Positions 9,743 through 28,135 of a stretch of 32,000 nt of DNA are shown here, one piece after another. A model generated the notes under the pieces. The model was given only the letters and a program-made list of their open reading frames with translations, made no database searches and was not told the DNA's origin. Source of the DNA: Legionella bononiensis (GTDB taxonomy: Bacteria > Pseudomonadota > Gammaproteobacteria > Legionellales > Legionellaceae). The first letter of the stretch is position 1; each line of letters begins with the position of its first letter. The DNA lies in the NCBI RefSeq assembly GCF_016786415.1, contig NZ_JADWVN010000016.1. One strand, 5' to 3'. The position numbers were made by a program, and so were the translations under genes.

Positions 9743-11503
9743 TTATCCTTTTTCTTGATTTAACTCTTCATTTTTAGACGGAGGTTCAGTTTCCCTCCTT
9801 AAAAACTCTTCATCTAATTGCCCTACCACTCGAATAGCCTCTGCAATTGAAGTCGTCCCGTCCTTAACCAGCTCAAGGACTGATTCGGATAATGGATGAT
9901 AAGTTTTACACGCTAATGCTGCTTTGACAAAAGCTGCTGAATCATTCTGGCGTAAAGCATTCAGCATATCCGTATTTAGCTCCAATAACTCATAAATTCC
10001 CACTCGTCCATAATAACCGCTGTAGTTACAATGCGAGCATCCTACTCCTTTTTTAAAAGAAAGTTTAGGATCAACCTTCATTGATAGAAGCCAGATTAAC
10101 TCATGTTCATCAGGTTTTTCTGTATAAATACAGAATTTACAAAGTGTACGAACTAACCTTTGACCGATGATTGCCTTTACTGCAGAGGCGACCATATAAC
10201 CTTCAACCCCCATATCGATTAATCGAATAGCTGAAGTCATGGCATCATTAGTATGCAAGGTAGCAAGTACCAAATGACCCGTAACAGCTGCTCGCATTGC
10301 GATTTGAGCGGTTTCTGGATCACGGATTTCACCCACCATAATAACATCTGGATCCTGGCGCAGCATGGCACGTAGAACTCGTGCAAAAGTCAAATCGATC
10401 TTGGGGTTAACCTGTACCTGATTAATTCGGCTGATGCGATATTCGATAGGATCCTCAACCGTTATAATTTTACGCTCGGGTAAATTAAGCCTGGCGAGAA
10501 TACTGTATAAAGTTGTTGTTTTACCACTTCCTGTAGGACCAGTAACCAAGAGCATCCCATAAGGCTTGGAATAGATTTCTTCGATACGTTTTACTGTTTC
10601 AGGATCAATTCCAAGTTGACTTAAATCCGTCACTTCACTGGATTGATTCAGTAATCGCATTACTACGGCTTCCCCATTCGCGGTTGGCAAGGTGGATAAA
10701 CGTACATCAAATGAATTACCCTTGATTTTAAAATTAAAGCGACCATCCTGTGGAATTCGTTTTTCAGAAATATCCAGATGGGCACGCAGCTTTAATCGCT
10801 GAATCAAGGCACTGACAATACGCTTTTCATCTAAGATATTCTCATGAAGCTGGCCATCGATACGAAAACGAATACGTAACGATTTTTCATCAGGTTCAAT
10901 ATGAATATCTGATGCTCTGGCTTGAACTGCATCATGAAACAGGGAGTTTAAGAGTTTTACTACAGGTGCCTGCTCATCACTTTCTTGTAGTTCATCAAAC
11001 AACTCATCTTCTTTTCCGCTCAACTCCTCAATCATCTCTCCAGAAAGCTCATGGGCAAAAGTTGATATTTCCTGAGTCCGGCGATAAATTCTATCTATTG
11101 CATTTAATAACGACATCTCGCTGATAACGGCTAATTTTAACGGCTTTTTTAATACCTTTGAAATCGCATCAAAAGCAGTAATATCTTGAGGGTCAGCCAT
11201 CCCAACTAATAATTCACCATCTTTCTCACCAAGAACCAATGCACGACAACGTCGTGCGTATGTTTCAGGTAACAAATGAGTATATTCAGGTGAAAGTTCG
11301 TATTTATCCAAATCTATATATGGAATATTCAATTGTTTGGCAAAAAGTTCAAGAACATCATGCTCCGAAACAACGCCCATATTTATCAGGATTCTTCCAA
11401 ATTTATCACCGGTTTTTTTTTGCAACTCCATAGCCTGATCAAGAGTCTCCTGGTTAATTAAGCCTGCATTAAGCAAAATCTCACCAAGTCGTATACGCTT
11501 CAT
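9743..11503 (-). CDS. mshE: MSHA-type pilus extension ATPase MshE (GspE/PilB family) with N-terminal c-di-GMP-binding MshEN domain
   Basis: Two tandem 24-residue MshEN motifs at the N-terminus (RLGEILLNAGLINQETLDQAMELQ, KKTGD spacer, KFGRILINMGVVSEHDVLELFAKQ). Walker A GPTGSGKTT, Asp box, Walker B/His box, and tetra-Cys CKFC...CSHC. Confidence 0.9.
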   Translation of the reverse strand: MKRIRLGEILLNAGLINQETLDQAMELQKKTGDKFGRILINMGVVSEHDVLELFAKQLNIPYIDLDKYELSPEYTHLLPETYARRCRALVLGEKDGELLVGMADPQDITAFDAISKVLKKPLKLAVISEMSLLNAIDRIYRRTQEISTFAHELSGEMIEELSGKEDELFDELQESDEQAPVVKLLNSLFHDAVQARASDIHIEPDEKSLRIRFRIDGQLHENILDEKRIVSALIQRLKLRAHLDISEKRIPQDGRFNFKIKGNSFDVRLSTLPTANGEAVVMRLLNQSSEVTDLSQLGIDPETVKRIEEIYSKPYGMLLVTGPTGSGKTTTLYSILARLNLPERKIITVEDPIEYRISRINQVQVNPKIDLTFARVLRAMLRQDPDVIMVGEIRDPETAQIAMRAAVTGHLVLATLHTNDAMTSAIRLIDMGVEGYMVASAVKAIIGQRLVRTLCKFCIYTEKPDEHELIWLLSMKVDPKLSFKKGVGCSHCNYSGYYGRVGIYELLELNTDMLNALRQNDSAAFVKAALACKTYHPLSESVLELVKDGTTSIAEAIRVVGQLDEEFLRRETEPPSKNEELNQEKG

Positions 11504-11505
11504 AA

Positions 11506-12516
11506 CTATCCTTGTATTTTTTTCAAACGATTTTGAGCATATGCCCGAACCACCGTTTCACTATCCGGACTTTGGCTTGCCCGTATGTACGCTTCCTTTG
11601 CTTGATTCAGATCATGGGTGTATTCAAGCGAAATGGCATATCCTAACCAATACTGACCATTATTCGGATCAATCTGAATTAATGACTTAAATATTCCGCC
11701 TGACTCAACGATTTTCCCCTCACCTTGAAGTGCTGCAGCCAAAGTGCCATAAAAATCGGGATAGGTTTCTATGGGAGGATGATAGTTGGATAAATATTTC
11801 ACTGCTTCAGCTGCTTTACCCTGTTCAAGAATTAATCTTCCCTTTATCGAAATAAGTGGTATATCTAAAGGCGTGTGTTTTAACCCTTCATTAACTACTG
11901 CTGTTGCCAAATCAAAATCACCATAGGTTAGATATAAAGATGCCAGATTTTCACTGGCATTCACTGCATTAGGAATTTTATCTAAAATTTCCTGTAATAG
12001 TTCTATTGCACGATCATCACGTCCCTCTTCGATTGATTGCAGTGCTTTATTCATTTGGGCATCATGCCATTCAGTAAGCGTTTGAGGCGCATAAACTTTA
12101 TTTACGGTTGTCTCTTCTGGTTCATTCTGACTCTCCACCCAATCAGGCACATCATTCTGCTCAACAGCTAATTGAGGAGCCGGTGGTAATTCAGATTCAA
12201 CAGCGTGCACGGGAGGAAGGGCAGGAATATAACTTATAGGCTTTATTGGTTCTAATGGCGCAGGACGTGAAAGAGAGTCTGCTATTACTATTGCAGGATC
12301 CTCCTGAGTTGGTGCTTTAGATTTTGATAATGAGTCACCAGCAATACTGATCAAGACCATTCCCGTGAGAATTATAAGCAGAAAAACACCGCCTGCCAGC
12401 AATCCCCACTTTATTCTAGCCAAATTATTACTGGGAACAGCCTGAAGAAGCGGAATTGGATTTTTAGTTCGTTGTTGTTTGGAAAGATCATTTAAGAGAT
12501 CATTAAGCAAACTCAT
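11506..12516 (-). CDS. mshN: MshN-like TPR-repeat pilus biogenesis protein (N-terminal TM, Pro-rich linker, TPR C-terminus)
   Basis: Located between the mshM-like and mshE genes. One TM (WGLLAGGVFLLIILTGMVLI), a Pro-rich spacer, then TPR-like helices. The track start at 12537 is TTG; the ATG at 12516 overlaps the mshM stop as ATGA and is preferred. Confidence 0.7.
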   Translation of the reverse strand: MSLLNDLLNDLSKQQRTKNPIPLLQAVPSNNLARIKWGLLAGGVFLLIILTGMVLISIAGDSLSKSKAPTQEDPAIVIADSLSRPAPLEPIKPISYIPALPPVHAVESELPPAPQLAVEQNDVPDWVESQNEPEETTVNKVYAPQTLTEWHDAQMNKALQSIEEGRDDRAIELLQEILDKIPNAVNASENLASLYLTYGDFDLATAVVNEGLKHTPLDIPLISIKGRLILEQGKAAEAVKYLSNYHPPIETYPDFYGTLAAALQGEGKIVESGGIFKSLIQIDPNNGQYWLGYAISLEYTHDLNQAKEAYIRASQSPDSETVVRAYAQNRLKKIQG

Positions 12517-13424
12517 AAAGTTAATCCGTAATACCAAATCATGATAAAGAATACCAATACACCCATCGCTCCGATACCGAGAAAGGGTTTTATATAAGGC
12601 CGCCAGAGGAAGAGTTCGGAGCTTTCTGTATCAGCAATTGCTCGATTCACCGCATGACTATTAACCAAAGATTTACCCTGCCCATAAGCTACCAAAAGTG
12701 ACTTGTGACAAAGAATATTCAATAATCGAGGTAATCCTCCACTGGCCTTATATAATCGTCGCTTCGCATACGATGTAAATAAACAACCGTACGTATAACC
12801 TGCCTTTGCTAAACGATGACTTAAATACTTATCCAGATCACCTCGGGCCAGCGGTTGTAATTCATATGAAAAAGTGAATCGCTGTTTTAGTTGACGAAGA
12901 TTAATCTGAGCCAATTTAACGTCTAATTCAGGCTGACCAAAAAGGACTACCTGGAGCAGTTTTCTTTCCTCAGTTTCAAGGTTAGTCAGAAGTCGAACAG
13001 CCTCAAGACATGAATCAGGTAAAGCCTGTGCTTCATCAATGATCAATACTGTTTTTTTTCCAGCCCGATGTAAATCAAGAAGTCGCTGATTAATCGCTTC
13101 AAGCAGTTGATATTGTGTCCAATTTTCTTCTGGTTTAACACCTAGTTCACTTGCAACAGCAAAACGTAAGCCATCTGCGGTCTGATCGGGATTAGGTATG
13201 TACGCTGTAACATATTCATCTTTCAAACTATTTAATAAAATTCTACAGATCAAAGTTTTTCCAGTGCCAATTTCACCCACAATTTTAATAAAACCTTCAC
13301 CTTGAGAAAGACTTAGCAAGAGAACATTTAATGCTTCCTGGTGGCTAGGTAGTTCACAAAAAAACTCTGTATTTGGCGTGAGTGTAAACGGCGCTTTAGT
13401 CAATCTAAAATGTTCTAAATACAT
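12513..13424 (-). CDS. mshM: MshM (ExeA-like AAA+ ATPase) pilus biogenesis protein
   Basis: Walker A GEIGTGKT, Walker B VLIIDEAQ, ExeA-like layout and a C-terminal TM segment. A strong GGGAGAGGGAG sits directly upstream of the ATG. Confidence 0.8.
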   Translation of the reverse strand: MYLEHFRLTKAPFTLTPNTEFFCELPSHQEALNVLLLSLSQGEGFIKIVGEIGTGKTLICRILLNSLKDEYVTAYIPNPDQTADGLRFAVASELGVKPEENWTQYQLLEAINQRLLDLHRAGKKTVLIIDEAQALPDSCLEAVRLLTNLETEERKLLQVVLFGQPELDVKLAQINLRQLKQRFTFSYELQPLARGDLDKYLSHRLAKAGYTYGCLFTSYAKRRLYKASGGLPRLLNILCHKSLLVAYGQGKSLVNSHAVNRAIADTESSELFLWRPYIKPFLGIGAMGVLVFFIMIWYYGLTL

Positions 13425-13439
13425 CTCCCTCTCCCCAGT

Positions 13440-15197
13440 TTATCGTGTGCTCAGATTCTCTTTTGATTTTGGACCCAGCACAATTGGAGCTTCTCCTTGA
13501 GTACCATAGATATCAGGCCGATCTCCCAAATGAAAACCACGCTTAAGACTTGCAATTCTTCGAGTAGTATCCGTAAGATCTTTAATGTTGCTTTTCTGGT
13601 TAACAATGGTTGCTTTTAATAAAATCACCAGTTCACTTTTGTCGGAGTTTTGCTTGGTTCGACGTACCAAGGTACCTAAAAAGGGAATGTTACCAAACCA
13701 GGGTAGTTGAGCAATACCCTCTGTCGTTGCATCTTGCATCAACCCACCAATGACCACTACCTGACCATTTTTGGAATGGACTATAGTATCAGACTCTCGG
13801 ATGGTGCTGTTGGCCAATGGCAGATCCAGAACACCACCTTGTGTACCCAAATCAATCACTTTTCGCTGATCTTTTACAAGGCTTACAGAAGGATGTATAT
13901 GCAGAGTAACTTGTCCATTGGGATCAATTTGAGGGGTAACATCGAGGGTAATCCCAGAAAAGAATGGAGTTAAATTCACATTTAATGTGGGCTGCGTAAC
14001 TAACCCTTGCGATACGATGTTTTGGTTCTGAGACACGTTAGTAACAAAAAACTCATCAAATCCCACTTTAATTGCAGCCTTCTGATTATTCATAGCTGAT
14101 ACACGTGGACTGGATAAAACCTGCACATTACCTTGGAGCTCAAGAGCCTGGATATAGGTGGTGAAATCACGGGGATTCCAATGGATATCGATTCCAAAAC
14201 CCTGACCAGCAGCTCGAATAGCCGCACTTGAAAAATCGGCATTAGGTATGTCAACGTTCGTTCCAGTGAAATTCGACAGCGCATTAAGCTTTGCACCAAA
14301 AAGTTTCCAGTCAATGCCCATTTGAAACTCATTACTCAGATTGACCTCAAGAATTTTGGCTTCAAGAATGACCTGACGATCCATACTGTTCTGCACAACA
14401 TCCAGATACTTTTCGACTTGTTTGAGCTCTTTTGGCATAGCCCTGACAACAATGATTCCAGCAACAGGATTAACTGTGACTGAACGACCATCCGTTTTAC
14501 CAATAATATTTTCGAGAGTAAGCTTTAACGATTTCCAAAAATCGATATCACTTTTGGTTTCAACAGCGCCGATCACATTACTGTAACTTTGATTATTATT
14601 AATATTGGTAGGCAAAGAAGTCGTAGAGGTTGTTCCAGCTGTCCCTTGATTGTTTGAACCAACAGAAGTGACCTCTCCATTGCTTACGGTCATATTAGAG
14701 CTGCCCTTACGCTGCAACTCCAGGTAATTCACATTATAAATTTGGGTTTTTAAAGAATTAGGAAGTATTTCATAGCCGCCCTGAATTGGAATATAGGCGT
14801 AACCATAAACATCTTCAATGGATTGAAGTACTTGTTCAACAGTAACCTGTTTAAGGCTTAATGTAATAGTGCCTTTAATTTCAGGACTCACAACCATATT
14901 GGTTGATGTATCCGCAACAAGACCCATAAAAAAAGCCTGGGCAGGTACATTTTTCACTGCAATATCAAAACGTTGATTACTTGAACGAGCCCCTCCGGAG
15001 CGTACTTTCAAACTGGGTAAAAGTGCTTGAACGGCGTTACGATGAGGCATTCTGCTGTCTTTCGCCATTAACGTTTTATTATTAGCAATCCCTGTTTGCA
15101 ATTCATTATCCATTTCATCAATTGCAGTACCTTTAACCGGCTTATGCATATTACAGGCTGTGAGGAGCAAAAGAAGTATAACTGTATATTTTTTCAT
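13440..15197 (-). CDS. mshL: Pilus secretin MshL (GspD/PilQ superfamily), lipoprotein
   Basis: Lipobox LLLLLTAC|N. Secretin C-terminal domain blocks (VLSSPRVSAMNNQKA, IPFLGTLV...ELVILLKATIV). The start overlaps the mshK stop as ATGA. Confidence 0.88.
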   Translation of the reverse strand: MKKYTVILLLLLTACNMHKPVKGTAIDEMDNELQTGIANNKTLMAKDSRMPHRNAVQALLPSLKVRSGGARSSNQRFDIAVKNVPAQAFFMGLVADTSTNMVVSPEIKGTITLSLKQVTVEQVLQSIEDVYGYAYIPIQGGYEILPNSLKTQIYNVNYLELQRKGSSNMTVSNGEVTSVGSNNQGTAGTTSTTSLPTNINNNQSYSNVIGAVETKSDIDFWKSLKLTLENIIGKTDGRSVTVNPVAGIIVVRAMPKELKQVEKYLDVVQNSMDRQVILEAKILEVNLSNEFQMGIDWKLFGAKLNALSNFTGTNVDIPNADFSSAAIRAAGQGFGIDIHWNPRDFTTYIQALELQGNVQVLSSPRVSAMNNQKAAIKVGFDEFFVTNVSQNQNIVSQGLVTQPTLNVNLTPFFSGITLDVTPQIDPNGQVTLHIHPSVSLVKDQRKVIDLGTQGGVLDLPLANSTIRESDTIVHSKNGQVVVIGGLMQDATTEGIAQLPWFGNIPFLGTLVRRTKQNSDKSELVILLKATIVNQKSNIKDLTDTTRRIASLKRGFHLGDRPDIYGTQGEAPIVLGPKSKENLSTR

Positions 15198-15535
15198 CTA
15201 CGTTTTGTCCACAGCCTTTTTCCAAATAAATACAAGATGACCTTGCGGCCAGAGTACAACAATACCACATGATTTTTATCAATAGCAAGGACGCGTGCCC
15301 CGTTAATGGAACTGCCAACACTGACAATTTGTTCATTTATCATTGCGAGTCGCCTCATTCGTCCAATCAATATACTTTGAAGATTAAAAGGGGTACCTTT
15401 ATCTTTAGCTACAGGCTCCTCCGTGTTTACTTTAGGTTTGGTCGGGTCACTTAAATACGCCAGGCCAATATTCGGAATCAGCAAAAAAAACAGGAAGATG
15501 AAAGGGCAGAATAATTTGGAGTACCGGTTACTCAT
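15194..15535 (-). CDS. mshK: MshK-like small pilus biogenesis protein
   Basis: 113 aa with an N-terminal hydrophobic signal/anchor. Sits immediately upstream of the secretin, as mshK does in Vibrio MSHA loci. ATGA coupling at both ends. The assignment rests mainly on synteny. Confidence 0.55.
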   Translation of the reverse strand: MSNRYSKLFCPFIFLFFLLIPNIGLAYLSDPTKPKVNTEEPVAKDKGTPFNLQSILIGRMRRLAMINEQIVSVGSSINGARVLAIDKNHVVLLYSGRKVILYLFGKRLWTKRR

Positions 15536-16269
15536 GGGGTAACTCCCTGCGCCACATTAGTCGTATCGGTAGGTAGTTTCAAAGTATAGAACTCAATCTC
15601 CGCGATCCCTTCTGGATACTTTTTGACGGTATAAGTAAATTTATCCCAATACAGACTCCAATTGAGCCCTTCCAGGCGCTTTAAATAATTCATTATAGGA
15701 AAATAGTTACCTTTTAAGATTAATCGGTAATGGGTATGCACTACATTCATTCGGTTTGATGCTTTCTGATTCGATGAGGCGTCACCAGACGAAACTTGAT
15801 TTGTTGTCGGTTGAGGTTGAATTACAGCAGGTTGAGGTATGGTTGCTAAATCAACAATGGTTACCCCAAAAGTTTGTTTCAACATGTCATGCAACAATTT
15901 AGCTAAATCACGACTGCTGATGTAACGACGACGATAACGAGCAAACTTTTTTTCAATTTCATTCAATTGACTCATTAAATCTTTATAATCATTTAAAAAC
16001 TGGACAGTATCAGGATTGTTTAGCAAGATATGAATAACTGTTTGCTTTTGCTTTAATTCATTAACTTGAGTCTCCAATTGCTGCGTTTGAAGGACACTGT
16101 CATTAATCGCTTTTTTTTGAGGATAATGTACTGCTAAGAACCATAATCCAAAAAGTAACGAAAGAACAATGATTAATAGACTGAATCTATCACGCTCGCT
16201 TAATTGTTCTATTCTGAGTTTAAACAACTGATAATGTCTTAAAAACAATAAGTGAATACTCATAGTCAT
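15532..16269 (-). CDS. mshJ: MshJ (PilO-like) bitopic inner-membrane alignment protein
   Basis: One N-terminal TM (FSLLIIVLSLLFGLWFLAV) followed by a coiled-coil-like stretch and a C-terminal domain. Position is between the PilN-like gene and mshK. ATGA overlaps at both ends. Confidence 0.6.
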   Translation of the reverse strand: MTMSIHLLFLRHYQLFKLRIEQLSERDRFSLLIIVLSLLFGLWFLAVHYPQKKAINDSVLQTQQLETQVNELKQKQTVIHILLNNPDTVQFLNDYKDLMSQLNEIEKKFARYRRRYISSRDLAKLLHDMLKQTFGVTIVDLATIPQPAVIQPQPTTNQVSSGDASSNQKASNRMNVVHTHYRLILKGNYFPIMNYLKRLEGLNWSLYWDKFTYTVKKYPEGIAEIEFYTLKLPTDTTNVAQGVTP

Positions 16270-16901
16270 TTCCCCCCGGAGTCCGTTTTAGTTGGGTCTT
16301 CAGAATCATCTTCAGAACCAAGATCATCCGTTGCTATAGAAAATTTTACGTAGGGGCGATTGGTTATTGCTTTTACATAAAACAAATTAAACACTATTTT
16401 TTTAAAAGCTGCTGTTTTCATTAAACGATTCATCAGCACTGATACATCATCAGGACGAACGGCATAACCACCAAGAGTGATACTGTCACTGTCCAAATTA
16501 ATTGAAATTTGATTAAACCATAAAGATGCAGGTACAGTTTGAGCCAATGCATACATAAATCCGGAAAACCCGGGTCTTACAATCAGATGTTCTAAAGCGG
16601 CATAATCAGCACTTCGCTCCTCAACCTGATTCCTCAATGCCTGAATCTGATTTGATAATGAAATATTATTACTCAATAGAGGGTATTTTTTGACCAACTC
16701 GGTGTAGGTTTGGCTTTCATTAACTAATGTTTGTTGGAGTTCATTGAGATTACTACGCGCATTATATATGTGTACTCCCTTGAAAACAGAAATAATAAAA
16801 AGAAAAACAGTCACCCCGATAACTATCCAAACCATTTTTGTAACGGATAGTCTACTGCTGTCCTTAGGGAGATCGCGAAGAAAATTGATTGATTGAATCA
16901 T
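16266..16901 (-). CDS. PilN-like fimbrial assembly protein (equivalent to the C-terminal half of a fused MshI)
   Basis: N-terminal INFL..LP motif resembling the PilN INLLP box, a single TM (MVWIVIGVTVFLFIISVF), a coiled-coil region and an acidic C-terminal tail. The start shares one nt with the upstream stop (TAATG). Confidence 0.55.
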   Translation of the reverse strand: MIQSINFLRDLPKDSSRLSVTKMVWIVIGVTVFLFIISVFKGVHIYNARSNLNELQQTLVNESQTYTELVKKYPLLSNNISLSNQIQALRNQVEERSADYAALEHLIVRPGFSGFMYALAQTVPASLWFNQISINLDSDSITLGGYAVRPDDVSVLMNRLMKTAAFKKIVFNLFYVKAITNRPYVKFSIATDDLGSEDDSEDPTKTDSGGK

Positions 16902-17824
16902 TATTTCTCCCCGTTCAAATGCATTAAGGCGCCGCCAATTGCATAAAATGCCTCAGCCATAACCGGAGGAGTTATCTTCTGTTCGGACTTAAAATAGGCA
17001 TTAACATCAAGTAAAAATACATCCTTTACAAGCTCTTCCTTTAATCGAAGAAATAAATCTTCTGCAGCATAGAAGCTTGGGGTAAAGAAAATTTTCTTAG
17101 GTTCAGGCAATTTAAGTTCAATTAAACAATAATCAATGGACCGCTGTATTTCCAGAACCATATCATGAATTGCAGTACTCTCAGGTTCAATTATCGAACG
17201 ACTGATTGACAATGCCCGAGAGAGATACAAGCTGTCTTTAAAATAGATATGCAACCTGCAAACATTTGCGTCATAACTGACTACTATAGTCGGTGATTCA
17301 GGATCTATAGGAGCACGCCTCAGCAATTGGGACAACGCCAGCTCAGCAATGCTTATTGATGAAATATTAAGCAAACAACGCTTCAACAATTCGACTTTAT
17401 TTATTAATTCATTTTGAGGCGTTACTGCGACAAAAACACGTTTTCGCAAGCCACCAGCACCGTGTAGCGGTACCATAAATGTATCCACAGCGATGTCGTT
17501 TAACGGGTAATCTATCATTCCTTTCAGATGCCAGCGTAAGGCTTTGGCCATCTCCTGCTCTGGAACTTCAAGCGCATCCATTAACAACAGCTGATATAAG
17601 CCCGGTGATAAAATAACCTGGCAAGGGAGACCAATTAAACTATATCGCTCAATTGCCTCTGATATTCCCTTGGTGAACAGTTCTGGCTTTGGATCTGGAA
17701 AATAATGGTGTTCACAAAAGCGTATGCTGCTACCCTCTTCAAGTTCTACAAGACTAAAACCATGTTCACTTAATAAACATGATAGTTGTCGTGAAGGTTT
17801 TTTCGCTTTGCCCAAGCCGAACAT
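16901..17824 (-). CDS. mshI: MshI (PilM-like cytoplasmic) pilus assembly protein
   Basis: 307 aa, no TM, first gene of the I-J-K-L-M-N-E block. Size and position fit a PilM-like actin-fold component. The assignment is by synteny, not by recognised motifs. Confidence 0.55.
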   Translation of the reverse strand: MFGLGKAKKPSRQLSCLLSEHGFSLVELEEGSSIRFCEHHYFPDPKPELFTKGISEAIERYSLIGLPCQVILSPGLYQLLLMDALEVPEQEMAKALRWHLKGMIDYPLNDIAVDTFMVPLHGAGGLRKRVFVAVTPQNELINKVELLKRCLLNISSISIAELALSQLLRRAPIDPESPTIVVSYDANVCRLHIYFKDSLYLSRALSISRSIIEPESTAIHDMVLEIQRSIDYCLIELKLPEPKKIFFTPSFYAAEDLFLRLKEELVKDVFLLDVNAYFKSEQKITPPVMAEAFYAIGGALMHLNGEK

Positions 17825-17932
17825 CCATCATCCTGATAATAAATGGTAAATCTAGTTTAACTGAGCCATTTTTGAATGTCGACTGCTATCTTGTTGATCC
17901 AGCATGGAAAAATCCTGTTCAAATGACCGTTC

Positions 17933-18412
17933 TTATTTCATGTTATTTAAAAAAACAGTATTAATCAGTTGAATGGTTTCATCCCCTTCTTTTAATGTCA
18001 TATCGATTGTAATTGCTCTAACCAGGGCTGGAGTAGCAGTGCTATTAAAATTTGATTGATAATACGTCAATGTAAATCCCGTTACCACATCGCTAAGAGG
18101 CTGGGACGATATTCCTGTACGAGTGAGTGTTGGCCCAGGACTAACCCAAGTGTAAGTAATTGATTCACCATTTGATGTGGTAAAACTGACATTTGCAGAA
18201 TTAATCACCGAAAAACTTACTGCCTGTTCCAGTTCTTTAGTCATTCGAGCCATCGCCAATGCGGCCTGATTATTTAAACCTGTAACATTTATCCCTGTAA
18301 AATAACTTGTAAATCCCGCATTTAACATCACCGAAGCAATTGAAAAGATGATCCCGGAAAGGACCATTACCATAATCATTTCAATGAGGGTAAAGCCCTT
18401 AGTTGTTCGCAT
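17933..18412 (-). CDS. Minor prepilin (MshO/PilW-like) with class III signal peptide
   Basis: MRTTKG|FTLIEMIMVMVLSGI: Gly-1, Phe+1, Glu+5. The ORF track starts at 18442 (16-residue leader); the ATG at 18412 gives a 6-residue leader. The start choice is uncertain. Confidence 0.75.
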   Translation of the reverse strand: MRTTKGFTLIEMIMVMVLSGIIFSIASVMLNAGFTSYFTGINVTGLNNQAALAMARMTKELEQAVSFSVINSANVSFTTSNGESITYTWVSPGPTLTRTGISSQPLSDVVTGFTLTYYQSNFNSTATPALVRAITIDMTLKEGDETIQLINTVFLNNMK

Positions 18413-18800
18413 AGTTGTATACGTAGGCCTTGATAATGGCATCTCCTGCTCCTGAAACAGTAATCGTAATAATTTTAGGGTTGGTTCCGGATATAATTGG
18501 TGTACTCACTGTGAAATTATTGGCAGCAGCGTAGGTCGAAAGAGGAGTGCATATTGCTAAACCAGGGGAAGTAGTGCATGGATCAGAAAGTGTTGTATAC
18601 CCATTGATGGAGCGATTCATCAAAATAATTTGCATCCGCGCATTGGCAAGAAAACTTGCCTGAGTAATCGATGTGGGTGTATTGGCACGACTGAGGGATT
18701 CATTCAGACCAACCAATAATCCTCCGGCAATAATGCCAATCAGTACAACGAAAGCGATCAGTTCAATCAGGGTAAAGCCTTGTTGTAATCCTTTTCTCAT
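18399..18800 (-). CDS. Minor prepilin (MshD-like) with class III signal peptide
   Basis: MRKGLQQG|FTLIELIAFVVLIGI with Glu+5 and one Cys pair (DPC...AIC). The track start at 18809 is GTG; the ATG at 18800 has AGGTGA 5 nt upstream and is preferred. Confidence 0.75.
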   Translation of the reverse strand: MRKGLQQGFTLIELIAFVVLIGIIAGGLLVGLNESLSRANTPTSITQASFLANARMQIILMNRSINGYTTLSDPCTTSPGLAICTPLSTYAAANNFTVSTPIISGTNPKIITITVSGAGDAIIKAYVYNYANN

Positions 18801-18809
18801 GGTGTTCAC

Positions 18810-20315
18810 CTAATGATTACGCCAGACAGTAGGAGTTGCACTTACTGCACCTCCGCCACCTGGAATACCCGTCACCGAGTTTAATGTAAAAGTCCCTCCC
18901 AAAGCGGTGCTTGTCCAATTAGTACCATCAAAATGATAGGCATTAGCAGAACTGGAACCAACGGCCATACAATCATTAGTTGCATTACAATGGACTCCTA
19001 ATAAATTGACAGAGCTTGGGGCTGTTTGGGCAACACAGGAGGCAGCGGAAGTGATAGGTAATGAACATTTAAAATTAACCCCATTATTCCCTACCAAAAT
19101 ACACAGACTGGTATTTGGACAATGTACGGAATTTAATGAATTATTAGTCAGAGTATAAGGACCAGTCCACGCTCCATTGAAATAGTACACACGTCCATTA
19201 CTTCGTACTGCAACACAACTATTCGTTTGAGGGCAATCTACATCATTCATAGTACTGGCCAGACTAGTCAGATTATTAAATGGGACTGTGGTATTCGAAG
19301 AAAAATTGTAGGCACGATTACTTCCTACCGACATACAAACACCACTGATACAGCTCACGCCTAGCAGGTTAAAATTATTGCTGGCGAGATAAGAAAAAGT
19401 CGCAGGAAAAGTATAACGATACATCAATCCCCTTGGAGGTGATACACCACTGCCAACTATCCAGCAATTGGTGCTTGTATCGCAGGAAACATCTTGAAAA
19501 CCTCCACCGGATATACCCGACAATGCCAGTGCCCATGACACACCATTATATAAATAAATTGAACCAACTGAAGCAGAAGTGCTTCCGACAGCAATTCCGT
19601 TAGTCAAGGTATTGAATATTCCTGTAAAGGTAAAATTGACTGGTCCTGTCAACACGGTTGACCACGAAGAACCATCAAACTTGAGGATAACACCACTGGT
19701 GCTGCTGTTAACCCCTGCGGCAAAATAAGTCGAAGGATTAGATAATAATACCGCCTGTGACAATGTAACCTGGCCACTGGGTGATGTTGCTGAGGGGGAG
19801 CTTCCCTGACCGATAATAATATATTGAATCTGACTTGCGGAAGCACCGCTGGAGTGAGCTGCTGCTGCAGTACCATTTTGCCCTCGACGGGCATGTTGCA
19901 ATGTTGCTCCACTGATTCCATCGTAGTATATGGTCTCTGAATCAACAGTAATCGCGCCAAATGTCGCTAAACCCGAAACTGAATTTAAAGGAATTACAGT
20001 CGATGAAGCGGTTATAGCAGAAGATAGAGTAGTAGAACCAGTATTTTTAGTACAACTGTACTGATACTCCCCTTGCCCGCTGACAGTAACTGCTGGCTGC
20101 CAACTCCCGTCACACCATGCTGTTGCAAGTGTGAGCTCGTAGGTTCCTTGTTCAATGCCTGTCTGTGCCAGATCGTAAGCACGATTTGCAGAAATGGAAC
20201 TGACACTCGAATTCGTGCCACTGAGTGTCATCGCAACAAATGCACTTGCAAGTGCGGCTACAATAACCAGGAGTATGGCAATAACCATCATTAAAAAACC
20301 GCGCTGATTATCCAT
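18810..20315 (-). CDS. Large PilX_N/MshP-like pseudopilin lacking Glu5, fused to a Cys-paired repeat (beta-propeller-like) domain; putative pilus-tip adhesin
   Basis: N-terminus MDNQRG|FLMMVIAILLVIVAALASAF has a pilin-like hydrophobic helix but Val at +5. Ser/Thr/Gly/Asn-rich. 14 Cys arranged as 7 close pairs. About 7-8 repeats of ..(L/V)xxVxC-x4-6-C-x-x-VG-x-x-G...(D/N)G..W from residue about 197 to the C-terminus. Confidence 0.7.
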   Translation of the reverse strand: MDNQRGFLMMVIAILLVIVAALASAFVAMTLSGTNSSVSSISANRAYDLAQTGIEQGTYELTLATAWCDGSWQPAVTVSGQGEYQYSCTKNTGSTTLSSAITASSTVIPLNSVSGLATFGAITVDSETIYYDGISGATLQHARRGQNGTAAAAHSSGASASQIQYIIIGQGSSPSATSPSGQVTLSQAVLLSNPSTYFAAGVNSSTSGVILKFDGSSWSTVLTGPVNFTFTGIFNTLTNGIAVGSTSASVGSIYLYNGVSWALALSGISGGGFQDVSCDTSTNCWIVGSGVSPPRGLMYRYTFPATFSYLASNNFNLLGVSCISGVCMSVGSNRAYNFSSNTTVPFNNLTSLASTMNDVDCPQTNSCVAVRSNGRVYYFNGAWTGPYTLTNNSLNSVHCPNTSLCILVGNNGVNFKCSLPITSAASCVAQTAPSSVNLLGVHCNATNDCMAVGSSSANAYHFDGTNWTSTALGGTFTLNSVTGIPGGGGAVSATPTVWRNH

Positions 20316-20724
20316 TCACAAACCCCGTTTCAGGTGCCACTGTCAGCGCGTTTGAACCTTCACCTGTTGCAGTCACTGTAATAGTCGCTGTGGATGAATT
20401 GGATGGAGTACCTGATGCATCAAAAGTGATGCTGCTGCCGGATAAAGAAACCCCTGCCGGCATGGCAACGTTGACTGCACCTCGAGGAGGGGTTGGAGAT
20501 ATAAAATAATTAGTCGCGGAAATATTGATGGTATAAGATGTATTTAAGCTCATGGCCAACGTTTGAGTGTAACGAATATCTCTCTTTAATTGCTCCGAGA
20601 TTGAAATTAAATTAAAGCTTCCCGCAGAAGGGTAATTCATGATTACCGCTACAGCTAAAATACTAATCACAACGAGGACCGCAATAAACTCGATAAGGGT
20701 AAAACCGTGTGTAGGTCGCATCAT
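20308..20724 (-). CDS. Minor prepilin (MshC/GspH-like) with class III signal peptide
   Basis: MMRPTHG|FTLIEFIAVLVVISILAV with Glu+5 and no Cys. Its end overlaps the 501-aa gene start by 8 nt. Confidence 0.75.
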   Translation of the reverse strand: MMRPTHGFTLIEFIAVLVVISILAVAVIMNYPSAGSFNLISISEQLKRDIRYTQTLAMSLNTSYTINISATNYFISPTPPRGAVNVAMPAGVSLSGSSITFDASGTPSNSSTATITVTATGEGSNALTVAPETGFVNG

Positions 20725-20832
20725 ATTCTACCCTGCTCCATCTCCTTTACACGCTGATTGAAGTACCTGGCTCAAATTATGTTGGTCAGTCGGACTATAC
20801 AGTCCTTATTATAAAGCAGTAACCTCAATGGT

Positions 20833-21216
20833 TTAATTAATGCCCATCCCGCTAAATGTAGCAGTTACAGCAGTTCCACCAGTAGGTGTAAAAGTTAATG
20901 TACACGTTGCCGTAGCGCCTGCTGCTATTGGGGCTGGAGTTATTGCGTATAACCCACCGTTAGTAGGCATGCCACCAGCCAATACCCCCCATGTATTGCA
21001 ATTAGTTACAGCAATTCCTTTCGCACTATTGGCGGTTCGTGCAGCAAAATTAACCGACATGGCAGACGATAACCCTCCTGCAACACCATTAACTGCTGCT
21101 TGAGCAGCATCAGATTTTAAGTCAATATAAAGAGGTACTGCTACCACGGATAAAATACCCAAAATTACAATAACCATTACTAATTCAATCAGGGTAAAGC
21201 CTTTGTTCAAGTTCAT
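20833..21216 (-). CDS. MshA-type pilin (candidate major subunit)
   Basis: MNLNKG|FTLIELVMVIVILGILSVVAVPLYIDLKSDAAQAA is the MSHA-pilin style N-terminus. Has a C-terminal Cys pair (TNC...ATC). Has its own strong RBS (GGGAG) and a 263-bp upstream intergenic region. Confidence 0.8.
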   Translation of the reverse strand: MNLNKGFTLIELVMVIVILGILSVVAVPLYIDLKSDAAQAAVNGVAGGLSSAMSVNFAARTANSAKGIAVTNCNTWGVLAGGMPTNGGLYAITPAPIAAGATATCTLTFTPTGGTAVTATFSGMGIN

Positions 21217-21479
21217 CAGTCACTCCCATATAAAACACGTACAGATCACATCGTTTTGACACTCAAAATCGAGGCAATGCATCCATTTGATTAACTCTCA
21301 AGTCCATAATTAAGTATAGACCAGGATTTATAGTGAACACAAACTCTATTTATAAAATCAATAAAGCTAAGTAATTGACTAATAGACAATTTTTATCAGA
21401 TATACAATAAATCATTACCTGATTATCCAAAATGCTCAATCCACGATATAAAATTGTGGATGAACGTACGTGTATGTTA

Positions 21480-21932
21480 CTAACAACCGGCCGTATTTAT
21501 TGCAATCACCGGTGCTACACCTGCAGCTGTTGATGCAGTATAAGTAACACTGCACGTAGCAGGAGTTGGCGCACCAGCCGCTTGCCATGTTGCAGTAGTA
21601 GCAGTTTGAGTCAAAGTAAAACCAGGTACCGGTACATAAGATATCGCAACGTTGATACCTCCAGCAGCTGATGCTGGATATTTATGGAGCAAATTTACTG
21701 TAGTTCCATCCATAATAATAGAGGGTTGAGAATCAAGGTAATTATTTACTATAACGGCTGAATGAGTTATTTGACTGGCTGAAGCCACTGAACCAAAAAT
21801 ACCATTTATAGCTGAAATCCGTGCTTGAGTAGTAAAATCATAGTACTTGGGAATTGCCACTGCAGCTAATATTCCTAGTAGTATAATGACAATAATTAAT
21901 TCGATAAGAGTAAAACCACGCTGCTTCACCAT
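21480..21932 (-). CDS. MshA/MshB-type pilin (second candidate major subunit)
   Basis: MVKQRG|FTLIELIIVIILLGILAAVAIPKYYDFTTQARISA. Has a C-terminal Cys pair (ATC...AGC at the very C-terminus). GGGGAG lies 4 nt upstream of the ATG. Confidence 0.8.
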   Translation of the reverse strand: MVKQRGFTLIELIIVIILLGILAAVAIPKYYDFTTQARISAINGIFGSVASASQITHSAVIVNNYLDSQPSIIMDGTTVNLLHKYPASAAGGINVAISYVPVPGFTLTQTATTATWQAAGAPTPATCSVTYTASTAAGVAPVIAINTAGC

Positions 21933-21983
21933 TATACTCCCCCAAAAAGTGTAAATAAGTACTGTTTTCTCATCCCTAACAAC

Positions 21984-22451
21984 TTACCACTCATGACAAC
22001 CCCATAGACGCATATCCTGACACCATCTATAAGAACTCACTGTAAATTCAACTATACCCTTATTACAGTATAGATCAACTACAATTTGATGGTCATTTTT
22101 TGACCAAAAATATCGTTTACCACGTACTTTATAGGTCAGTTGATGAAGAACAGGATTATATTGCCAATATCCACTTTCCTGTAGTTCCGGTGACGCGAAT
22201 CCTGATGCCTGAAGAATAAAATCAGGTTCATTCAGATAGGAGCAATCAGGATTAGTCTGCTTCAACAGTATGCTTTTTGAATGAACCAGGTTTGTTATCA
22301 TGTTGAGATTCATACTTACGGTTGTTTTTTCTACCGTGGCTTCGAGCAGTTCAAAATAACTTAATAGTGTGCCCGCCAAAATGGCAATCAAACAAAGAAC
22401 GATTGCAAGATGCACTCGAGATAATTGGTAGGATCTTCCTAAGTTAATCAT
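21984..22451 (-). CDS. mshF: MshF-like small membrane protein
   Basis: Sits directly after mshG, as in Vibrio MSHA loci. One TM (VHLAIVLCLIAILAGTLL). The preferred start is the ATG at 22451, which forms ATGA with the mshG stop; the track start at 22481 would overlap mshG by 34 nt. The assignment is by synteny. Confidence 0.5.
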   Translation of the reverse strand: MINLGRSYQLSRVHLAIVLCLIAILAGTLLSYFELLEATVEKTTVSMNLNMITNLVHSKSILLKQTNPDCSYLNEPDFILQASGFASPELQESGYWQYNPVLHQLTYKVRGKRYFWSKNDHQIVVDLYCNKGIVEFTVSSYRWCQDMRLWGCHEW

Positions 22452-23674
22452 CGTTTCTGTATCAAACTGGCCATGCTCCACATTGGTAAAAGTACACCAA
22501 GAGCAAGGATTAATACCATTCCCGCCATCACAACCAGTAAAATAGGCTCAATAGCGTCGCTTAATCGGACAATGTCATAATTGATTTCCCTCTGATAATA
22601 TTCTGCTACTTCATCTAATAACTCGTCAATTGTTCCACTTTCTTCACCAAGGCTAATCATCTGTATAATTAAAGGCGGAAATAGCTCTGTTTGAGTGATG
22701 GCAGCAGATATAGTATTGCCCCGAACGATTAAATCGGTAACCGACTTGATTTTATTTGCGACATAGAGATTTCCCGTTGAAGCACCAACCATTTGAATGC
22801 CCTCTACAGCAGGAATACCAGCTCGTAAAACCAATGCAAGCAGACGTGCGAAACGAGCAAGAAGAATACGATGGATCAACCAGCCTATGATTGGAATTTT
22901 CAGTTGCAATCGGCCCCAGAAGATAGCCCCTGAATCCGTTTTTAGATAAGCACGAATCCCCAATATAGTGAGTACAGCAAAACCAATCATTAAATACCAA
23001 TAACTCAATATAAAATTGGAACTGGCCATTAGAATACGCGTTGGTAATGGCAACTGACTTTGGAAACTGGCATACAGCTTTGCAAATGATGGAATAACAA
23101 AGACGTTAATGATGAGTAACGCAACCACTATCGCGACGATCACCATGGTTGGATAACGTAAGGCAGTTTTTACCTTTTTGGTAATGTCTACTTCAAGTTC
23201 AAGATAATCTGCAAGATGTAAGAAAATCCTGTCCAGATTTCCCGTATTTTCCCCCACAATAATCAAATTTAGAAAAAAGTCGGAAAATATATTAGGAAAT
23301 TGTGCCATGGCAACATGAAGTGATGTGCCTTTATTTAAAGTGTGTAGAATTTGAATCAAAGCTTCAGATAAGGTTGTGTTATGAGTTGTTTCAGACAGTC
23401 GCTCTACTGATGTAGCTAGAGGAATTCCCGCATGAAGCAATGAATACATCTGTCTGCAAAACATATGGAGTTCAGAATGAGGAACTTTAGAATCAAACCA
23501 CTTAACTTTTTGTTTGGTGGGAGTTGAGCTAGTAGCCGTTGAGGAGGAAATATCAATAGGAATAAGGTTATCAGCTATTAGTTGATTTGCCAGTTCTTCC
23601 GGACTCGAAGCGTTACGCTGTCCAGATATTGATTTACCATTTTGGTCACGAGCCGTGTAAGTATATTGCGGCAT
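22448..23674 (-). CDS. mshG: MshG, polytopic inner-membrane platform protein (GspF/PilC family)
   Basis: 408 aa with the duplicated GspF architecture (two cytoplasmic domains, each followed by TM segments) and typical blocks (LSEAL..L..G.SL, GEE(S/T)G.L...L). First gene of the locus. Confidence 0.88.
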   Translation of the reverse strand: MPQYTYTARDQNGKSISGQRNASSPEELANQLIADNLIPIDISSSTATSSTPTKQKVKWFDSKVPHSELHMFCRQMYSLLHAGIPLATSVERLSETTHNTTLSEALIQILHTLNKGTSLHVAMAQFPNIFSDFFLNLIIVGENTGNLDRIFLHLADYLELEVDITKKVKTALRYPTMVIVAIVVALLIINVFVIPSFAKLYASFQSQLPLPTRILMASSNFILSYWYLMIGFAVLTILGIRAYLKTDSGAIFWGRLQLKIPIIGWLIHRILLARFARLLALVLRAGIPAVEGIQMVGASTGNLYVANKIKSVTDLIVRGNTISAAITQTELFPPLIIQMISLGEESGTIDELLDEVAEYYQREINYDIVRLSDAIEPILLVVMAGMVLILALGVLLPMWSMASLIQKR

Positions 23675-25395: not shown

Positions 25396-25731
25396 ATGTC
25401 TGATCAGAACCTTATGTTAAATACCTTATTAAAATCACTCGAAGACATCCAGGCAATAGATGTCAAAGTGATTGATGTTCATAAACAAACAACCATTACT
25501 GACTATATGATTATTGCATCTGGTCGCGCATCACGTCATGTAAAAGCCATAGCTCAAAAAGTAATGGACGATATGAAGATAGCTGGCTTACCTGCACTCA
25601 GTTCTACTGGACTGGAAAGTGGTGACTGGGCTTTAATTGATTTTGGAGACTTCATCCTTCATGTAATGCAGGCTGAGAGCAGACAATTTTATAATCTTGA
25701 AGGATTGTGGGAAGAGCAACCAGGGTCCTAA
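25396..25731 (+). CDS. rsfS: Ribosomal silencing factor RsfS (iojap family)
   Basis: 111 aa with ..[17 protein letters not shown]-type blocks and the [14 protein letters not shown] motif. Conserved rsfS-rlmH-mrdA-rodA neighbourhood. Confidence 0.9.
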
Positions 25732-25738
25732 ACACGAT

Positions 25739-26209
25739 ATGTTAAAAATTACGGTCATTACCCTGGGTAATAAAATGCCTGACTGGGTAGTTAAAGGCTC
25801 AAATGATTACATCAAACGATTCAAAGAGGGTATTCAGTTAAAAGTTATTGAAATCCCTCTGATTAGTCGGAGCAAGTCATCTGATCTATCACGAATCATG
25901 GAAAAAGAATCCGCCCTGATCCGTGAAGCATTACCTAATGGTGCACGTATTATTGCTCTGGATATTGAAGGTAAAAGCTTCAGTAGCGAAGAATTAGCCA
26001 TAAAAATTACCCAGTTACAACAGATCTCCAGCCATGTTTGTTTCATCATTGGTGGTCCTGAAGGAATTTCAAGTGAGATCATGCAGCTCAGCGATGAACG
26101 TTGGTCCTTATCCAAACTAACGCTCCCTCATCCAATGGTTCGAATTATTTTATTGGAAACCTTATATCGAGCCTGGACTATTATTAATAACCATCCATAT
26201 CATAAATAG
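25739..26209 (+). CDS. rlmH: 23S rRNA (pseudouridine1915-N3)-methyltransferase RlmH
   Basis: [16 protein letters not shown]..., the [14 protein letters not shown] knot motif and C-terminal [18 protein letters not shown]. The track start at 25697 overlaps rsfS; the ATG at 25739 gives a canonical protein of about 156 aa. Confidence 0.9.
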
Positions 26210-26281
26210 GGATTGGTAAATAAATCCATTTTAAGTTACTATCAACACCTTGTGTTTGTACCCTAAACTTTACTGTGTGCG

Positions 26282-28135
26282 ATGCCTCTGAATCAGTCGT
26301 TCAAAAATTATCGAGCAGAATCACAAAATCAGCGTTTCAGGCTTAATTTATTAGTAGCTATATTAATCATATTGTCATTAATATTGGTTCTTAGATTGGC
26401 TTATCTGCAAATATCGGAATTCAAACGCTATCAAACCCTGTCTTTAAAAAATCAAATGAGTATTATTCCTATAGCGCCACCCAGAGGCGTGATTCTTGAC
26501 CGTAATGGGGTATTACTGGCAGAGAACGTTCCCGTTTATGTACTCGAAATAATTCCAGAGCATGTGAGTAACATGAAAAAAACTCTGGCTAAACTTCGTG
26601 AGTTACTCCCTTCTATCACTGATGATGATGTAGAAACATTTAATCGCGCGCGATCACAAAACCGCTCATTTGTTCCCATTCCAATCAAGCTCAAGTTAAG
26701 CCAGGAAGAAGTAGCTGTTTTCGCAATCAATCAATACCACTTTAAAGGAGTGAGTATCAAAGCTCGATTAATGCGCCATTATCCACTGGGTGAAATGACA
26801 GCTCATGCATTAGGTTATGTAGGCAGAATCAATATTGACGAACTAAAGAAAGTGGATCCTACCAACTACCGAGCAACCAATTTCATCGGTAAAGCAGGTG
26901 TAGAAAAATATTATGAAGACATACTTCATGGCAAAGTAGGCTACCAAATGACTGAAACTGATGTCAGTGGGCGTACACTTCGAGTCATCAACAAAGTGAA
27001 TCCTCATTCAGGTGCCAAACTCTACCTCAGCCTTGATGTGAGATTGCAGGAGGCTGCCTATAACGCGCTTAAAGATAAACGCGGCGCTGTAGTCGTCATT
27101 AATTCTCACAATGGTGAAATATTGGCCATGGTGAGCTCGCCCAGTTTTGATCCCAATATCTTTGTCGGTGGGGTCAGCACAAAGGATTATAAAATTTTGT
27201 CCAATGCCCTACAAAGACCTCTATTTAATCGAGCGGTACGCGGAGTATATCCTCCAGCCTCGACGATTAAACCATTTGTAGGATTGGCTGGTTTGGATAA
27301 AGGGTTCGTGACTACAGCCACTGAAATCTGGGATCCAGGTAAATTCAAACTGCCTACAGCCAGTCATGTATACCGTGATTGGAAAAAAACAGGACATGGT
27401 GTTATTAACTTTAAACGAGCGATTACTGTATCCTGTGATACCTATTTCTATCAACTCGGCCATAAAATGGGAATAGCCAATATAGAAGACATGTTGGTTA
27501 AATTTGGCTTGGGTCAATTAACCCATGTAGATCTCCATGAAGAAGCCAATGGAATCATTCCCAGTGCACGCTGGAAAAAGCAAACTAAAGGTGTTTCCTG
27601 GTACCCCGGTGATACGTTAATCTCCGCAATTGGACAAGGGTTCATGTTAGCAACTCCTTTACAAATGGCTAATGCAACAGCCTCATTAAGCCAGCATGGA
27701 CAAAGATTCAGACCTCATTTACTGACTAAAACAGTCAATAGTGATAACGGTGAAATTGATGAATACAAACCCGTTGAGGAATACCCTGTCTATCTTAAAG
27801 ATGAATCCAATTGGGACGTGGTTGCCGAAGCCATGCATAATGTATTGACCAGTAACGAAGGAACTGGATATCGATTTGGCCGCAATCCACCGTACCCTGT
27901 TGCCGGAAAAACTGGAACAGCGCAAGTATTCAGCGGAAGACAATATGAAAAAACAAAATATGAAGACATCCCGGAAGCACTTCGGGATAATTCGTTATTT
28001 ATAGCCTTTACCCCCGTGGACAAACCGGACATAGCTATTGCGGTGGTAGTAGAAAATGATGTCATTGCATCAACAGTAGCTCGTAAAGTCCTGGACGCCT
28101 ATTACCAAATACATCCAATTAAAGTGAATCCATGA
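26282..28135 (+). CDS. mrdA: Penicillin-binding protein 2 (elongasome D,D-transpeptidase)
   Basis: N-terminal TM anchor, active-site STIKP (SxxK), SCD (SxN/D-type) and KTGTA (KTG) motifs. Followed by rodA with an ATGA overlap. Confidence 0.92.
   Translation: MPLNQSFKNYRAESQNQRFRLNLLVAILIILSLILVLRLAYLQISEFKRYQTLSLKNQMSIIPIAPPRGVILDRNGVLLAENVPVYVLEIIPEHVSNMKKTLAKLRELLPSITDDDVETFNRARSQNRSFVPIPIKLKLSQEEVAVFAINQYHFKGVSIKARLMRHYPLGEMTAHALGYVGRINIDELKKVDPTNYRATNFIGKAGVEKYYEDILHGKVGYQMTETDVSGRTLRVINKVNPHSGAKLYLSLDVRLQEAAYNALKDKRGAVVVINSHNGEILAMVSSPSFDPNIFVGGVSTKDYKILSNALQRPLFNRAVRGVYPPASTIKPFVGLAGLDKGFVTTATEIWDPGKFKLPTASHVYRDWKKTGHGVINFKRAITVSCDTYFYQLGHKMGIANIEDMLVKFGLGQLTHVDLHEEANGIIPSARWKKQTKGVSWYPGDTLISAIGQGFMLATPLQMANATASLSQHGQRFRPHLLTKTVNSDNGEIDEYKPVEEYPVYLKDESNWDVVAEAMHNVLTSNEGTGYRFGRNPPYPVAGKTGTAQVFSGRQYEKTKYEDIPEALRDNSLFIAFTPVDKPDIAIAVVVENDVIASTVARKVLDAYYQIHPIKVNP

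Follow-up and report, generated by a model that had tools for sequence, protein, structure and literature searches.

Within a 32,000-nucleotide stretch of Legionella bononiensis DNA (assembly GCF_016786415.1, contig NZ_JADWVN010000016.1; the whole stretch is called the window hereafter), a gene on the minus strand encodes a 501-residue product, 100% identical to an L. bononiensis hypothetical protein. We propose, at a probability of roughly 0.65, that this protein is a modular minor pilin of the PilX/GspK/MshP or 'K' class, located at the apex of a mannose-sensitive haemagglutinin (MSHA)-type pilus and equipped with a built-in beta-propeller adhesin. The assignment to the K class is suggested by its N-terminus, its relatives and its gene context. 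A preliminary description of the same DNA had dealt with the C-terminal part of the open reading frame (ORF), window 18813-19727 on the minus strand or residues 197-501, as a repeat domain with Cys pairs; it is the pilus-operon context, overlooked there, that decides the likely function of the protein. The gene and its modules, as delimited from the sequence and the AlphaFold2 (AF2) models, are as follows.

18810-20315, minus strand: whole gene of the 501-residue modular minor-pilin-like protein, from the ORF list (stop codon 18810-18812).
20127-20315, minus strand: prepilin-like leader and long hydrophobic alpha1 helix, residues 1-63 (sequence and both AF2 models).
19740-20126, minus strand: beta-rich N-terminal globular module, residues 64-192, with the C68-C88 pair (AF2 strands).
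19635-19739, minus strand: blade 1, residues 193-227, no Cys pair (AF2 and unit alignment).
19506-19634, minus strand: blade 2, residues 228-270, no Cys pair (AF2 and unit alignment).
19371-19505, minus strand: blade 3, residues 271-315, C278/C284, a pair present in 55 of 64 relatives (sequence and AF2).
19257-19370, minus strand: blade 4, residues 316-353, C322/C327 with C-x4-C spacing (sequence, AF2 and DSSP).
19140-19256, minus strand: blade 5, residues 354-392, C361/C367 (sequence and AF2).
19008-19139, minus strand: blade 6, residues 393-436, C399/C405 and the clade-specific extra C417/C427 (sequence and AF2).
18900-19007, minus strand: blade 7, residues 437-472, C443/C449 (sequence and AF2).
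18861-18899, minus strand: Cys-less A-strand-like segment FTLNSVTGI (474-482) and Gly-rich linker, residues 473-485 (AF2 strand 467-484).
18813-18860, minus strand: linker and conserved C-terminal beta-strand TPTVWRNH, residues 486-501 (AF2 strand 493-500).

The C-terminal 310 residues, cut at the predicted blade boundaries, give seven units of 35-45 residues that align on h-x-x-V-x-C-x4-5-C-x-x-V-G-x-x-G...(Y/F)-x-(F/Y)-(N/D)-G-x-x-W, and an iterated repeat hidden Markov model (HMM) has the consensus NLNSVSCPSASDCWAVGNNGTILRYNGSSWS, which fits the pattern described earlier. Self-comparison of the family alignment by hhalign yielded off-diagonal alignments at E=5.4e-14 (190 columns, shift of about 43 residues) and E=5.6e-8, far beyond chance, and the repeat is therefore real. 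An ungapped BLOSUM autocorrelation over residues 191-501 gave no significant lag, because unit length varies (best z about 3 at lags 165, 121, 43 and 77; threshold 3.6, the 95th percentile of the shuffle maxima). The repeats that had been noticed from residue about 197 to the C-terminus are thus recovered by profile self-alignment, not by ungapped autocorrelation, as seven units spanning residues 193-485 approximately, and units 1 and 2 of the unit alignment are free of Cys, as the two N-terminal repeats had been said to be.

The full-length AF2 model, built on a 25-sequence alignment, has a mean predicted local distance difference test score (pLDDT) of 86.9 and begins with a helix (residues 3-63) and a beta-rich module (69-191), which are followed by seven blades of four strands each (28 strands, 196-484, pLDDT mostly 85-95) and a final strand (493-500). 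The blade count agrees with the seven-bladed Ycf48/BNR-like propeller that had been suggested. In the model, blade 1 is probably completed by residues 473-485 as a C-terminal 'velcro' strand, and an 'LxxV' motif follows the last W in the consensus of the A4 family, namely the protein together with 63 distant full-length relatives of 23-44% identity. A Foldseek search of the model against the PDB returned more than 1,000 matches at E≤1e-3, the best 50 of which are WD40-type or other beta-propellers, mostly seven-bladed; the listed matches include Nup43, MEP50, Gβ and Ycf48 (5ojr, 8am5_S), with target-normalised TM scores of 0.56-0.65.

At the sequence level, the A4 profile matched the solved Ycf48 structure 8am5_S at E=7.7e-11 over profile positions 182-470, which is the whole propeller, followed by 5ojp (4.6e-10), 5ojr and 2xbg (about 1e-9) and HCF136 (4e-5). 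Among the 64 relatives in the A4 set, the protein itself included, 13 matched PF14870 (best E=2e-8) and 25 matched the Rax2 propeller. The propeller is therefore homologous to Ycf48 (PF14870, PSII_BNR), but the protein is no Ycf48 orthologue: its host is a Legionella, its N-terminus is prepilin-like and not a lipobox, and its gene lies in a pilus operon.

The N-terminus reads MDNQRG followed by FLMMVIAILLVIVAALASAFVAM, a short polar leader ending in Gly and leading into a hydrophobic helix; at the junction (MDNQRG/FLMMV) Gly6 stands at −1 and Val replaces Glu at +5. Q4 and G6 are nearly invariant among the close homologues, the prepilin-like Q-x-G-[FY] junction is kept in all relatives, and Glu at +5 is absent from all 92 pilin-like relatives. 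The helix 3-63 was predicted both in the full-length model and in a model of residues 1-195 alone (pLDDT 83). PF14341 PilX_N was matched by 23 of the 64 full-length relatives (best E=4.1e-6), and single weak matches to GspK NF037980 (E=0.006) and ComGG (E=0.01), both K-class models, were found among the distant ones; the protein itself is labelled a PilX N-terminal domain protein in UniRef and is also named PilX by JGI.

A complete MSHA-type pilus cluster surrounds the gene, and its minor pilin genes stand in the order H-K-I-J:

9743-23674, minus strand: complete MSHA-type pilus cluster (Pfam and NCBIfam scans).
20308-20724, minus strand: upstream H-class minor pilin, GspH/ComGD-like, 138 residues (library matches).
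18399-18809, minus strand: downstream small minor pilin, 136 residues, I-class by position (weak PilV/GspH/GspG matches).
17933-18442, minus strand: J-class minor pilin, 169 residues (weak ComGF match).

At its start the gene shares 8 nucleotides with the H-class pilin gene upstream, and its stop codon adjoins the next minor pilin gene; the H-, I- and J-class minor pilin genes and this gene are translationally coupled. In Fluoribacter gormanii the order H, this gene, I, J is conserved together with the downstream machinery genes, while in a metagenomic MSHA-type cluster the gene of the relative P0097 (about 26% identity) follows three small genes, two of which encode the prepilin N_methyl motif. 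Library scans of the proteins in the window found no MshQ- or PilY1-like gene in the cluster 9743-23674. The class III-like leader, the lack of Glu+5 and the H, I and J minor pilin neighbours are all features of a K-class pilin, and a pilin-like N-terminus with an extra Ycf48-like propeller makes up a modular pilin. K-class pilins (GspK, PilK, PilX, MshP, ComGG and CpaL) lack Glu5 and are apical, the tip complex is licensed by a C-terminal beta-strand that is supplied in trans by PilY1/PilC/MshQ or in cis by GspK, and in systems without a separate adhesin the K homologue often has a large insertion immediately ahead of the donor strand (PMC13533445); modular pilins, in which grafted binding modules are displayed, occur widely (PMC8179133).

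On this basis we propose the following mechanism. Prepilin peptidase would cleave the protein after Gly6, and the mature protein, lacking Glu5, would take the apical position in the minor-pilin initiation complex. The C-terminal strand 493-500 could then fold back onto the pilin module as an in-cis donor strand, and the propeller would be displayed at the pilus tip as a ligand-binding (adhesin) module, so that one polypeptide might do the job of the MshP and MshQ or the PilX and PilY1 pairs. Seven periplasmic disulfides would be formed through the Dsb system, namely five intra-blade staples of the A-B hairpins, C417-C427 and C68-C88, and these could stiffen an exposed, force-bearing domain. 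The terminal strand TPTVWRNH is conserved in the close homologues, with a W-x-E tail in the distant relatives, and strands 69-72 and 143-146 were called in the full-length model only, not in that of residues 1-195, which is compatible with, and no proof of, the predicted pairing of the tail onto the N-terminal module. As to the ligand, a profile designated A1, narrower than A4 and not reaching Ycf48, had Tectonin-2 (5fsb, E=0.0012) as its sole match among PDB sequences, and the similarity to this glycan-binding protein may be taken as only a hint.

Several observations weigh against this proposal. No Pfam or NCBIfam pilin or propeller model matched the protein alone. Foldseek with the model of residues 1-195 found no solved pilin and returned phage tail modules instead, and the globular part beside the helix is, as modelled, not demonstrably a canonical pilin domain. 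For the disulfide component, in the blades with C-x5-C spacing the DSSP strings alone fix no register that sets the Cys opposite each other. In the library scans, moreover, the PilX_N and GspK models matched neither the protein nor its 24 close homologues, the scans of the 25 close family members gave nothing meaningful, and the IPR012902/PF07963 signature was not detected in the protein.

The globular module contains a small beta-barrel (residues 98-172 approximately; window 19800-20024, minus strand) between the pilin-like helix and the propeller, with the motif FGAITVDSETIYYDG...RRGQNGTAAAAHSSGA and also FGAITVDSETIYYDG..L..ARRGQNGTAAAAHSSGA. As a piece of 70-85 residues, it matched by Foldseek, within the PDB, the phage JBD30 baseplate (8rk3_b, E=1.7e-4) and N-terminal domains of tailspikes, and within BFVD 76 predicted viral proteins at E≤1e-3 (root-mean-square deviations of 1.2-2 Å, 23-39% identity), of which many are proteins of tail fibres or structural proteins. 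The barrel module also recurs 10-24 times in the giant proteins P0056, P0151 and P0157.

If the N-terminal helix were only a signal anchor, the protein could be a membrane-anchored periplasmic scaffold or assembly factor of the Ycf48 kind that never enters the filament. This alternative, which we consider unlikely, draws on the role of Ycf48, to which the propeller is homologous, as an assembly factor that binds nascent membrane proteins, and on the lack of an N_methyl or pilin model match for the protein and of a pilin fold match for its N-terminal globular module. Against a scaffold stand the prepilin-like junction conserved throughout the relatives, the PilX_N, GspK and ComGG matches among them, and the K slot that the gene fills beside the H, I and J minor pilin genes of two unrelated clusters; seven disulfides would also be less needed by a scaffold in the periplasm.

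The protein has 14 Cys, at residues 68, 88, 278, 284, 322, 327, 361, 367, 399, 405, 417, 427, 443 and 449, and the positions listed in the preliminary description, including the extra pair C417/C427, match the translation exactly. Each of the 14 reaches a conservation of at least 90% across the 24 homologues (41-87% identity). In the AF2 model each blade pair lies where strand A ends and strand B starts, for example in strands 272-280 and 283-290 for C278/C284 and in strands 319-323 and 326-331 for C322/C327, and the DSSP string of blade 4 pairs residues 322 and 327 across the strands, with residues 324-325 as the two-residue turn between them.

The pairing was assessed across the family with the iterated repeat HMM, which collected 2,022 units from 174 proteins, of which 1,889 distinct units have residues in both Cys columns. 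Both columns are Cys in 1,147 of these units, neither is in 740, and a single Cys occurs in just 2; the spacing is C-x5-C in 1,061 of 1,159 Cys-paired units, as counted per HMM hit. In the 740 Cys-free units the commonest residue pairs are M/G, G/V, F/G, G/I and L/G, the side-chain volumes of the two columns are anticorrelated (r=-0.80), and their sum is 227±30 Å3 (shuffled standard deviation 66), compared with 217 Å3 for two Cys; no such volume compensation was seen when it was looked for in neighbouring column pairs of the same repeat units. From the constant combined volume and the joint switch to Cys, these column statistics strongly support direct contact between the two Cys positions of a blade across the family, and an intra-blade disulfide is very likely in an exported protein. 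The intra-blade pairing that had been predicted is thereby supported by the all-or-none columns and by the volume compensation, while the view that a conserved pair within the blade is unusual did not hold for this repeat family: 61% of its units carry it, those of giant multi-repeat proteins among them, and PfCyRPA is a solved precedent.

At the level of whole proteins, blades 3-7 are all Cys-paired in 51 of the 64 full-length relatives and none is paired in 8, and the A4 family consensus has no Cys pair in blades 1-2. The Cys-free full-length relatives (8 of 64, for example P0025, P0086, P0108, P0127, P0132 and P0152) have M/G or F/G in every blade and could serve as natural controls for the contribution of the disulfides. 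Blade 6 of the Legionella clade differs in that its usual (Y/F)xNGxxW segment is replaced by FKCSLPITSAASC with its own conserved C417/C427; among the 64 relatives, the C417 column is a gap in 56 and Cys in 8, and the C427 column is Cys in 6. Outside the propeller, C68 is invariant in the 64 relatives, and its partner is either C88 (18, the Legionella clade including this protein) or a Cys at the equivalent of Y165, in the context Q-x-Q-C (46). The two partners are strictly alternative, never both and never neither, a switch that points to the logic of a disulfide in the alignment. The codons concerned are:

20052-20054, minus strand: codon of C88.
20112-20114, minus strand: codon of C68.
19821-19823, minus strand: codon of Y165.

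That the paired Cys serve in metal binding or redox activity and not as structural disulfides seems improbable to us. The C-x4-6-C spacing would be able to chelate metals, but the pairs are gained and lost blade by blade, independently of one another, their volume-matched hydrophobic/Gly replacements (M/G, F/G, G/V) are a signature of packing and not of ligands, the protein is exported to an oxidising compartment, and PfCyRPA has proven intra-blade disulfides of like logic (PMC5349852). A glycoside hydrolase of the BNR/sialidase type, or another enzyme delivered by the pilus, would be the least probable identity of the propeller and was rejected, since the ...NG..W motif, as a degenerate Asp-box like that of the BNR/sialidase superfamily, and the weak sequence link to the lectin Tectonin-2 noted above are set against the absence of any glycosidase family match in the protein or its relatives, a closest solved homologue, Ycf48, that is non-enzymatic, and invariant columns (G, W, C, A, E127, R144 and similar) that lie mostly outside the propeller and include no acidic/Arg catalytic set.

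Membership of the PilY1/PilC family was also considered and rejected, as neither the protein nor its relatives match IPR008707/PF05567 and the N-terminus is pilin-like.

The named ones among the 24 homologues at 41-87% identity are all from Legionellaceae, and a genome scan located the protein in L. quateirensis (95%), Fluoribacter gormanii, L. qingyii, L. santicrucis and L. drancourtii; none of the close homologues found by protein search or by genome scan was named L. pneumophila. When 1.84 billion representative proteins were searched with the profile, 41,550 matched at E≤1e-3, and the best 150 of these fall into two groups: about 90 proteins (clusters at 50% identity) of 470-600 residues that are matched end to end, and giant multi-repeat proteins of the Cys-pair unit, up to 6,713 residues long, with 39 matched stretches. 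The repeat unit of P0040, for example, reads SVSCPTxxFCMAVDxxGxxxxFNGxxW. These giant non-pilin surface proteins, built from C-x5-C propeller units, often have Ig-like (Big_3_5, TIG) domains as well (P0039, P0040, P0041, P0088, P0096 and P0112). No Pfam or NCBIfam model describes the C-x5-C propeller unit, a phmmer search with the multi-repeat protein P0096 against the PDB found no solved structure with a C-x5-C repeat, and literature searches on Ycf48 with pilin, Legionella with MSHA, and minor pilin with propeller and MSHA found no account of this protein family. These relatives may represent a large uncurated K-class family in which a stapled propeller of the Ycf48 type is placed between the pilin sheet and the in-cis strand, acting as tip adhesins of MSHA-type pili that lack MshQ and PilY1 in Legionellaceae and many uncultured bacteria, a generalisation for which we regard the odds as even.

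Apart from the minor pilins, the cluster encodes a GspF/PilC-like platform protein, two pilins, PilM-, PilN- and T2SSM-like proteins, an MshL-type secretin (249.2 bits against TIGR02519 MshL, for which the cut-off is 250.2), an MshM-like AAA_22 protein, an MshN-like TPR protein and the MshE ATPase (9743-11503), which has an MshEN domain. The MshEN domain binds cyclic di-GMP. A 165-residue ORF (21984-22481, minus strand) without a Pfam or NCBIfam match lies between the platform gene and the first pilin gene and overlaps the GspF-like gene by 34 nucleotides; it occupies the position of MshF in the Vibrio clusters. Directly downstream of the cluster lie hutU (urocanase) and hutH (histidine ammonia-lyase family) at 6123-9372 on the minus strand, and on its other side rsfS-rlmH-mrdA-rodA at 25396-29250 on the plus strand; with housekeeping genes on both flanks, the pilus cluster is therefore chromosomal. 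Within the 501-residue gene, a 103-residue ORF in another frame (19649-19960, minus strand), wholly contained in it, most likely does not code and is an artefact of the ORF listing.

With the L. bononiensis protein there is a concrete tip-adhesin candidate for a second, so far unstudied pilus, of the MSHA type, in non-pneumophila Legionella, together with a pilin architecture that is widespread yet missed by current domain libraries. The protein agrees with the recent model in which K-class pilins license assembly through their C-terminal strand and adhesin-less systems have large insertions in the K pilin, and can be used to test it. The exchange of Cys pairs for volume-matched residues is a natural experiment on the stapling of blades and could guide the engineering of stabilised propellers. 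If the wider reading of an uncurated K-class family is true, its members would represent a third solution for the pilus tip, beside the trans-acting PilY1/MshQ and the appended modular pilins, and the disulfides in their blades would have evolved as an adaptation to load under tension. No new principle is involved, for pilus-tip propellers, modular pilins and per-blade disulfides are each already known.

Among the known propellers, Ycf48/HCF136 (PDB 2xbg, 5ojp, 5ojr and 8am5_S) resembles that of the L. bononiensis protein in having seven blades and the repeat motif h..V.. -.GW.VG..G.i....dGG.tW. However, Ycf48 occurs in photosynthetic organisms as a lipoprotein and lacks the Cys pair, having F/M and G at the corresponding positions, whereas the propeller described here belongs to a pilin-like protein, comes from a non-photosynthetic bacterium and has Cys pairs in five blades. 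PfCyRPA of P. falciparum likewise has one disulfide per blade in five blades and none in the velcro blade (PMC5349852), although it is an unrelated six-bladed eukaryotic protein of the sialidase fold and the likeness is by analogy only.

Among the pilus systems, GspK/XcpX of the type II secretion system, PilK/PilX of type IVa pili, MshP of MSHA pili, ComGG, and CpaL of Tad pili share the prepilin-like N-terminus without Glu+5, and K-class pilins are likewise encoded with H, I and J minor pilins and, in systems without an adhesin, have a large insertion before a conserved C-terminal strand. The insertion is an alpha-domain in GspK, while in the L. bononiensis protein it comprises a Ycf48-like propeller of about 290 residues and the phage-like beta-barrel, and the cluster order H-K-I-J differs from mshD-O-P (I-J-K) of the V. 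cholerae MSHA locus (PMC13533445). The modular pilins PilB-vWA and PilC-lectin of S. sanguinis also have a functional module grafted on a pilin carrier (PMC8179133), but their modules are simply appended, whereas here the module is inserted before the terminal strand; Raynaud et al. 2021 (PMC8179133) catalogued modular pilins by the combination of IPR012902 with the signature of a known domain, and the L. bononiensis protein has neither. Its proposed role is like that of PilY1/PilC, which has a propeller, and of the large MshQ, both presented at the tip on the minor-pilin complex. PilY1 and MshQ, however, are separate non-pilin proteins that provide the strand in trans, and the PilY1 propeller belongs to a different family (IPR008707), whereas the L. 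bononiensis protein would unite the adhesin module and the K pilin in one chain.

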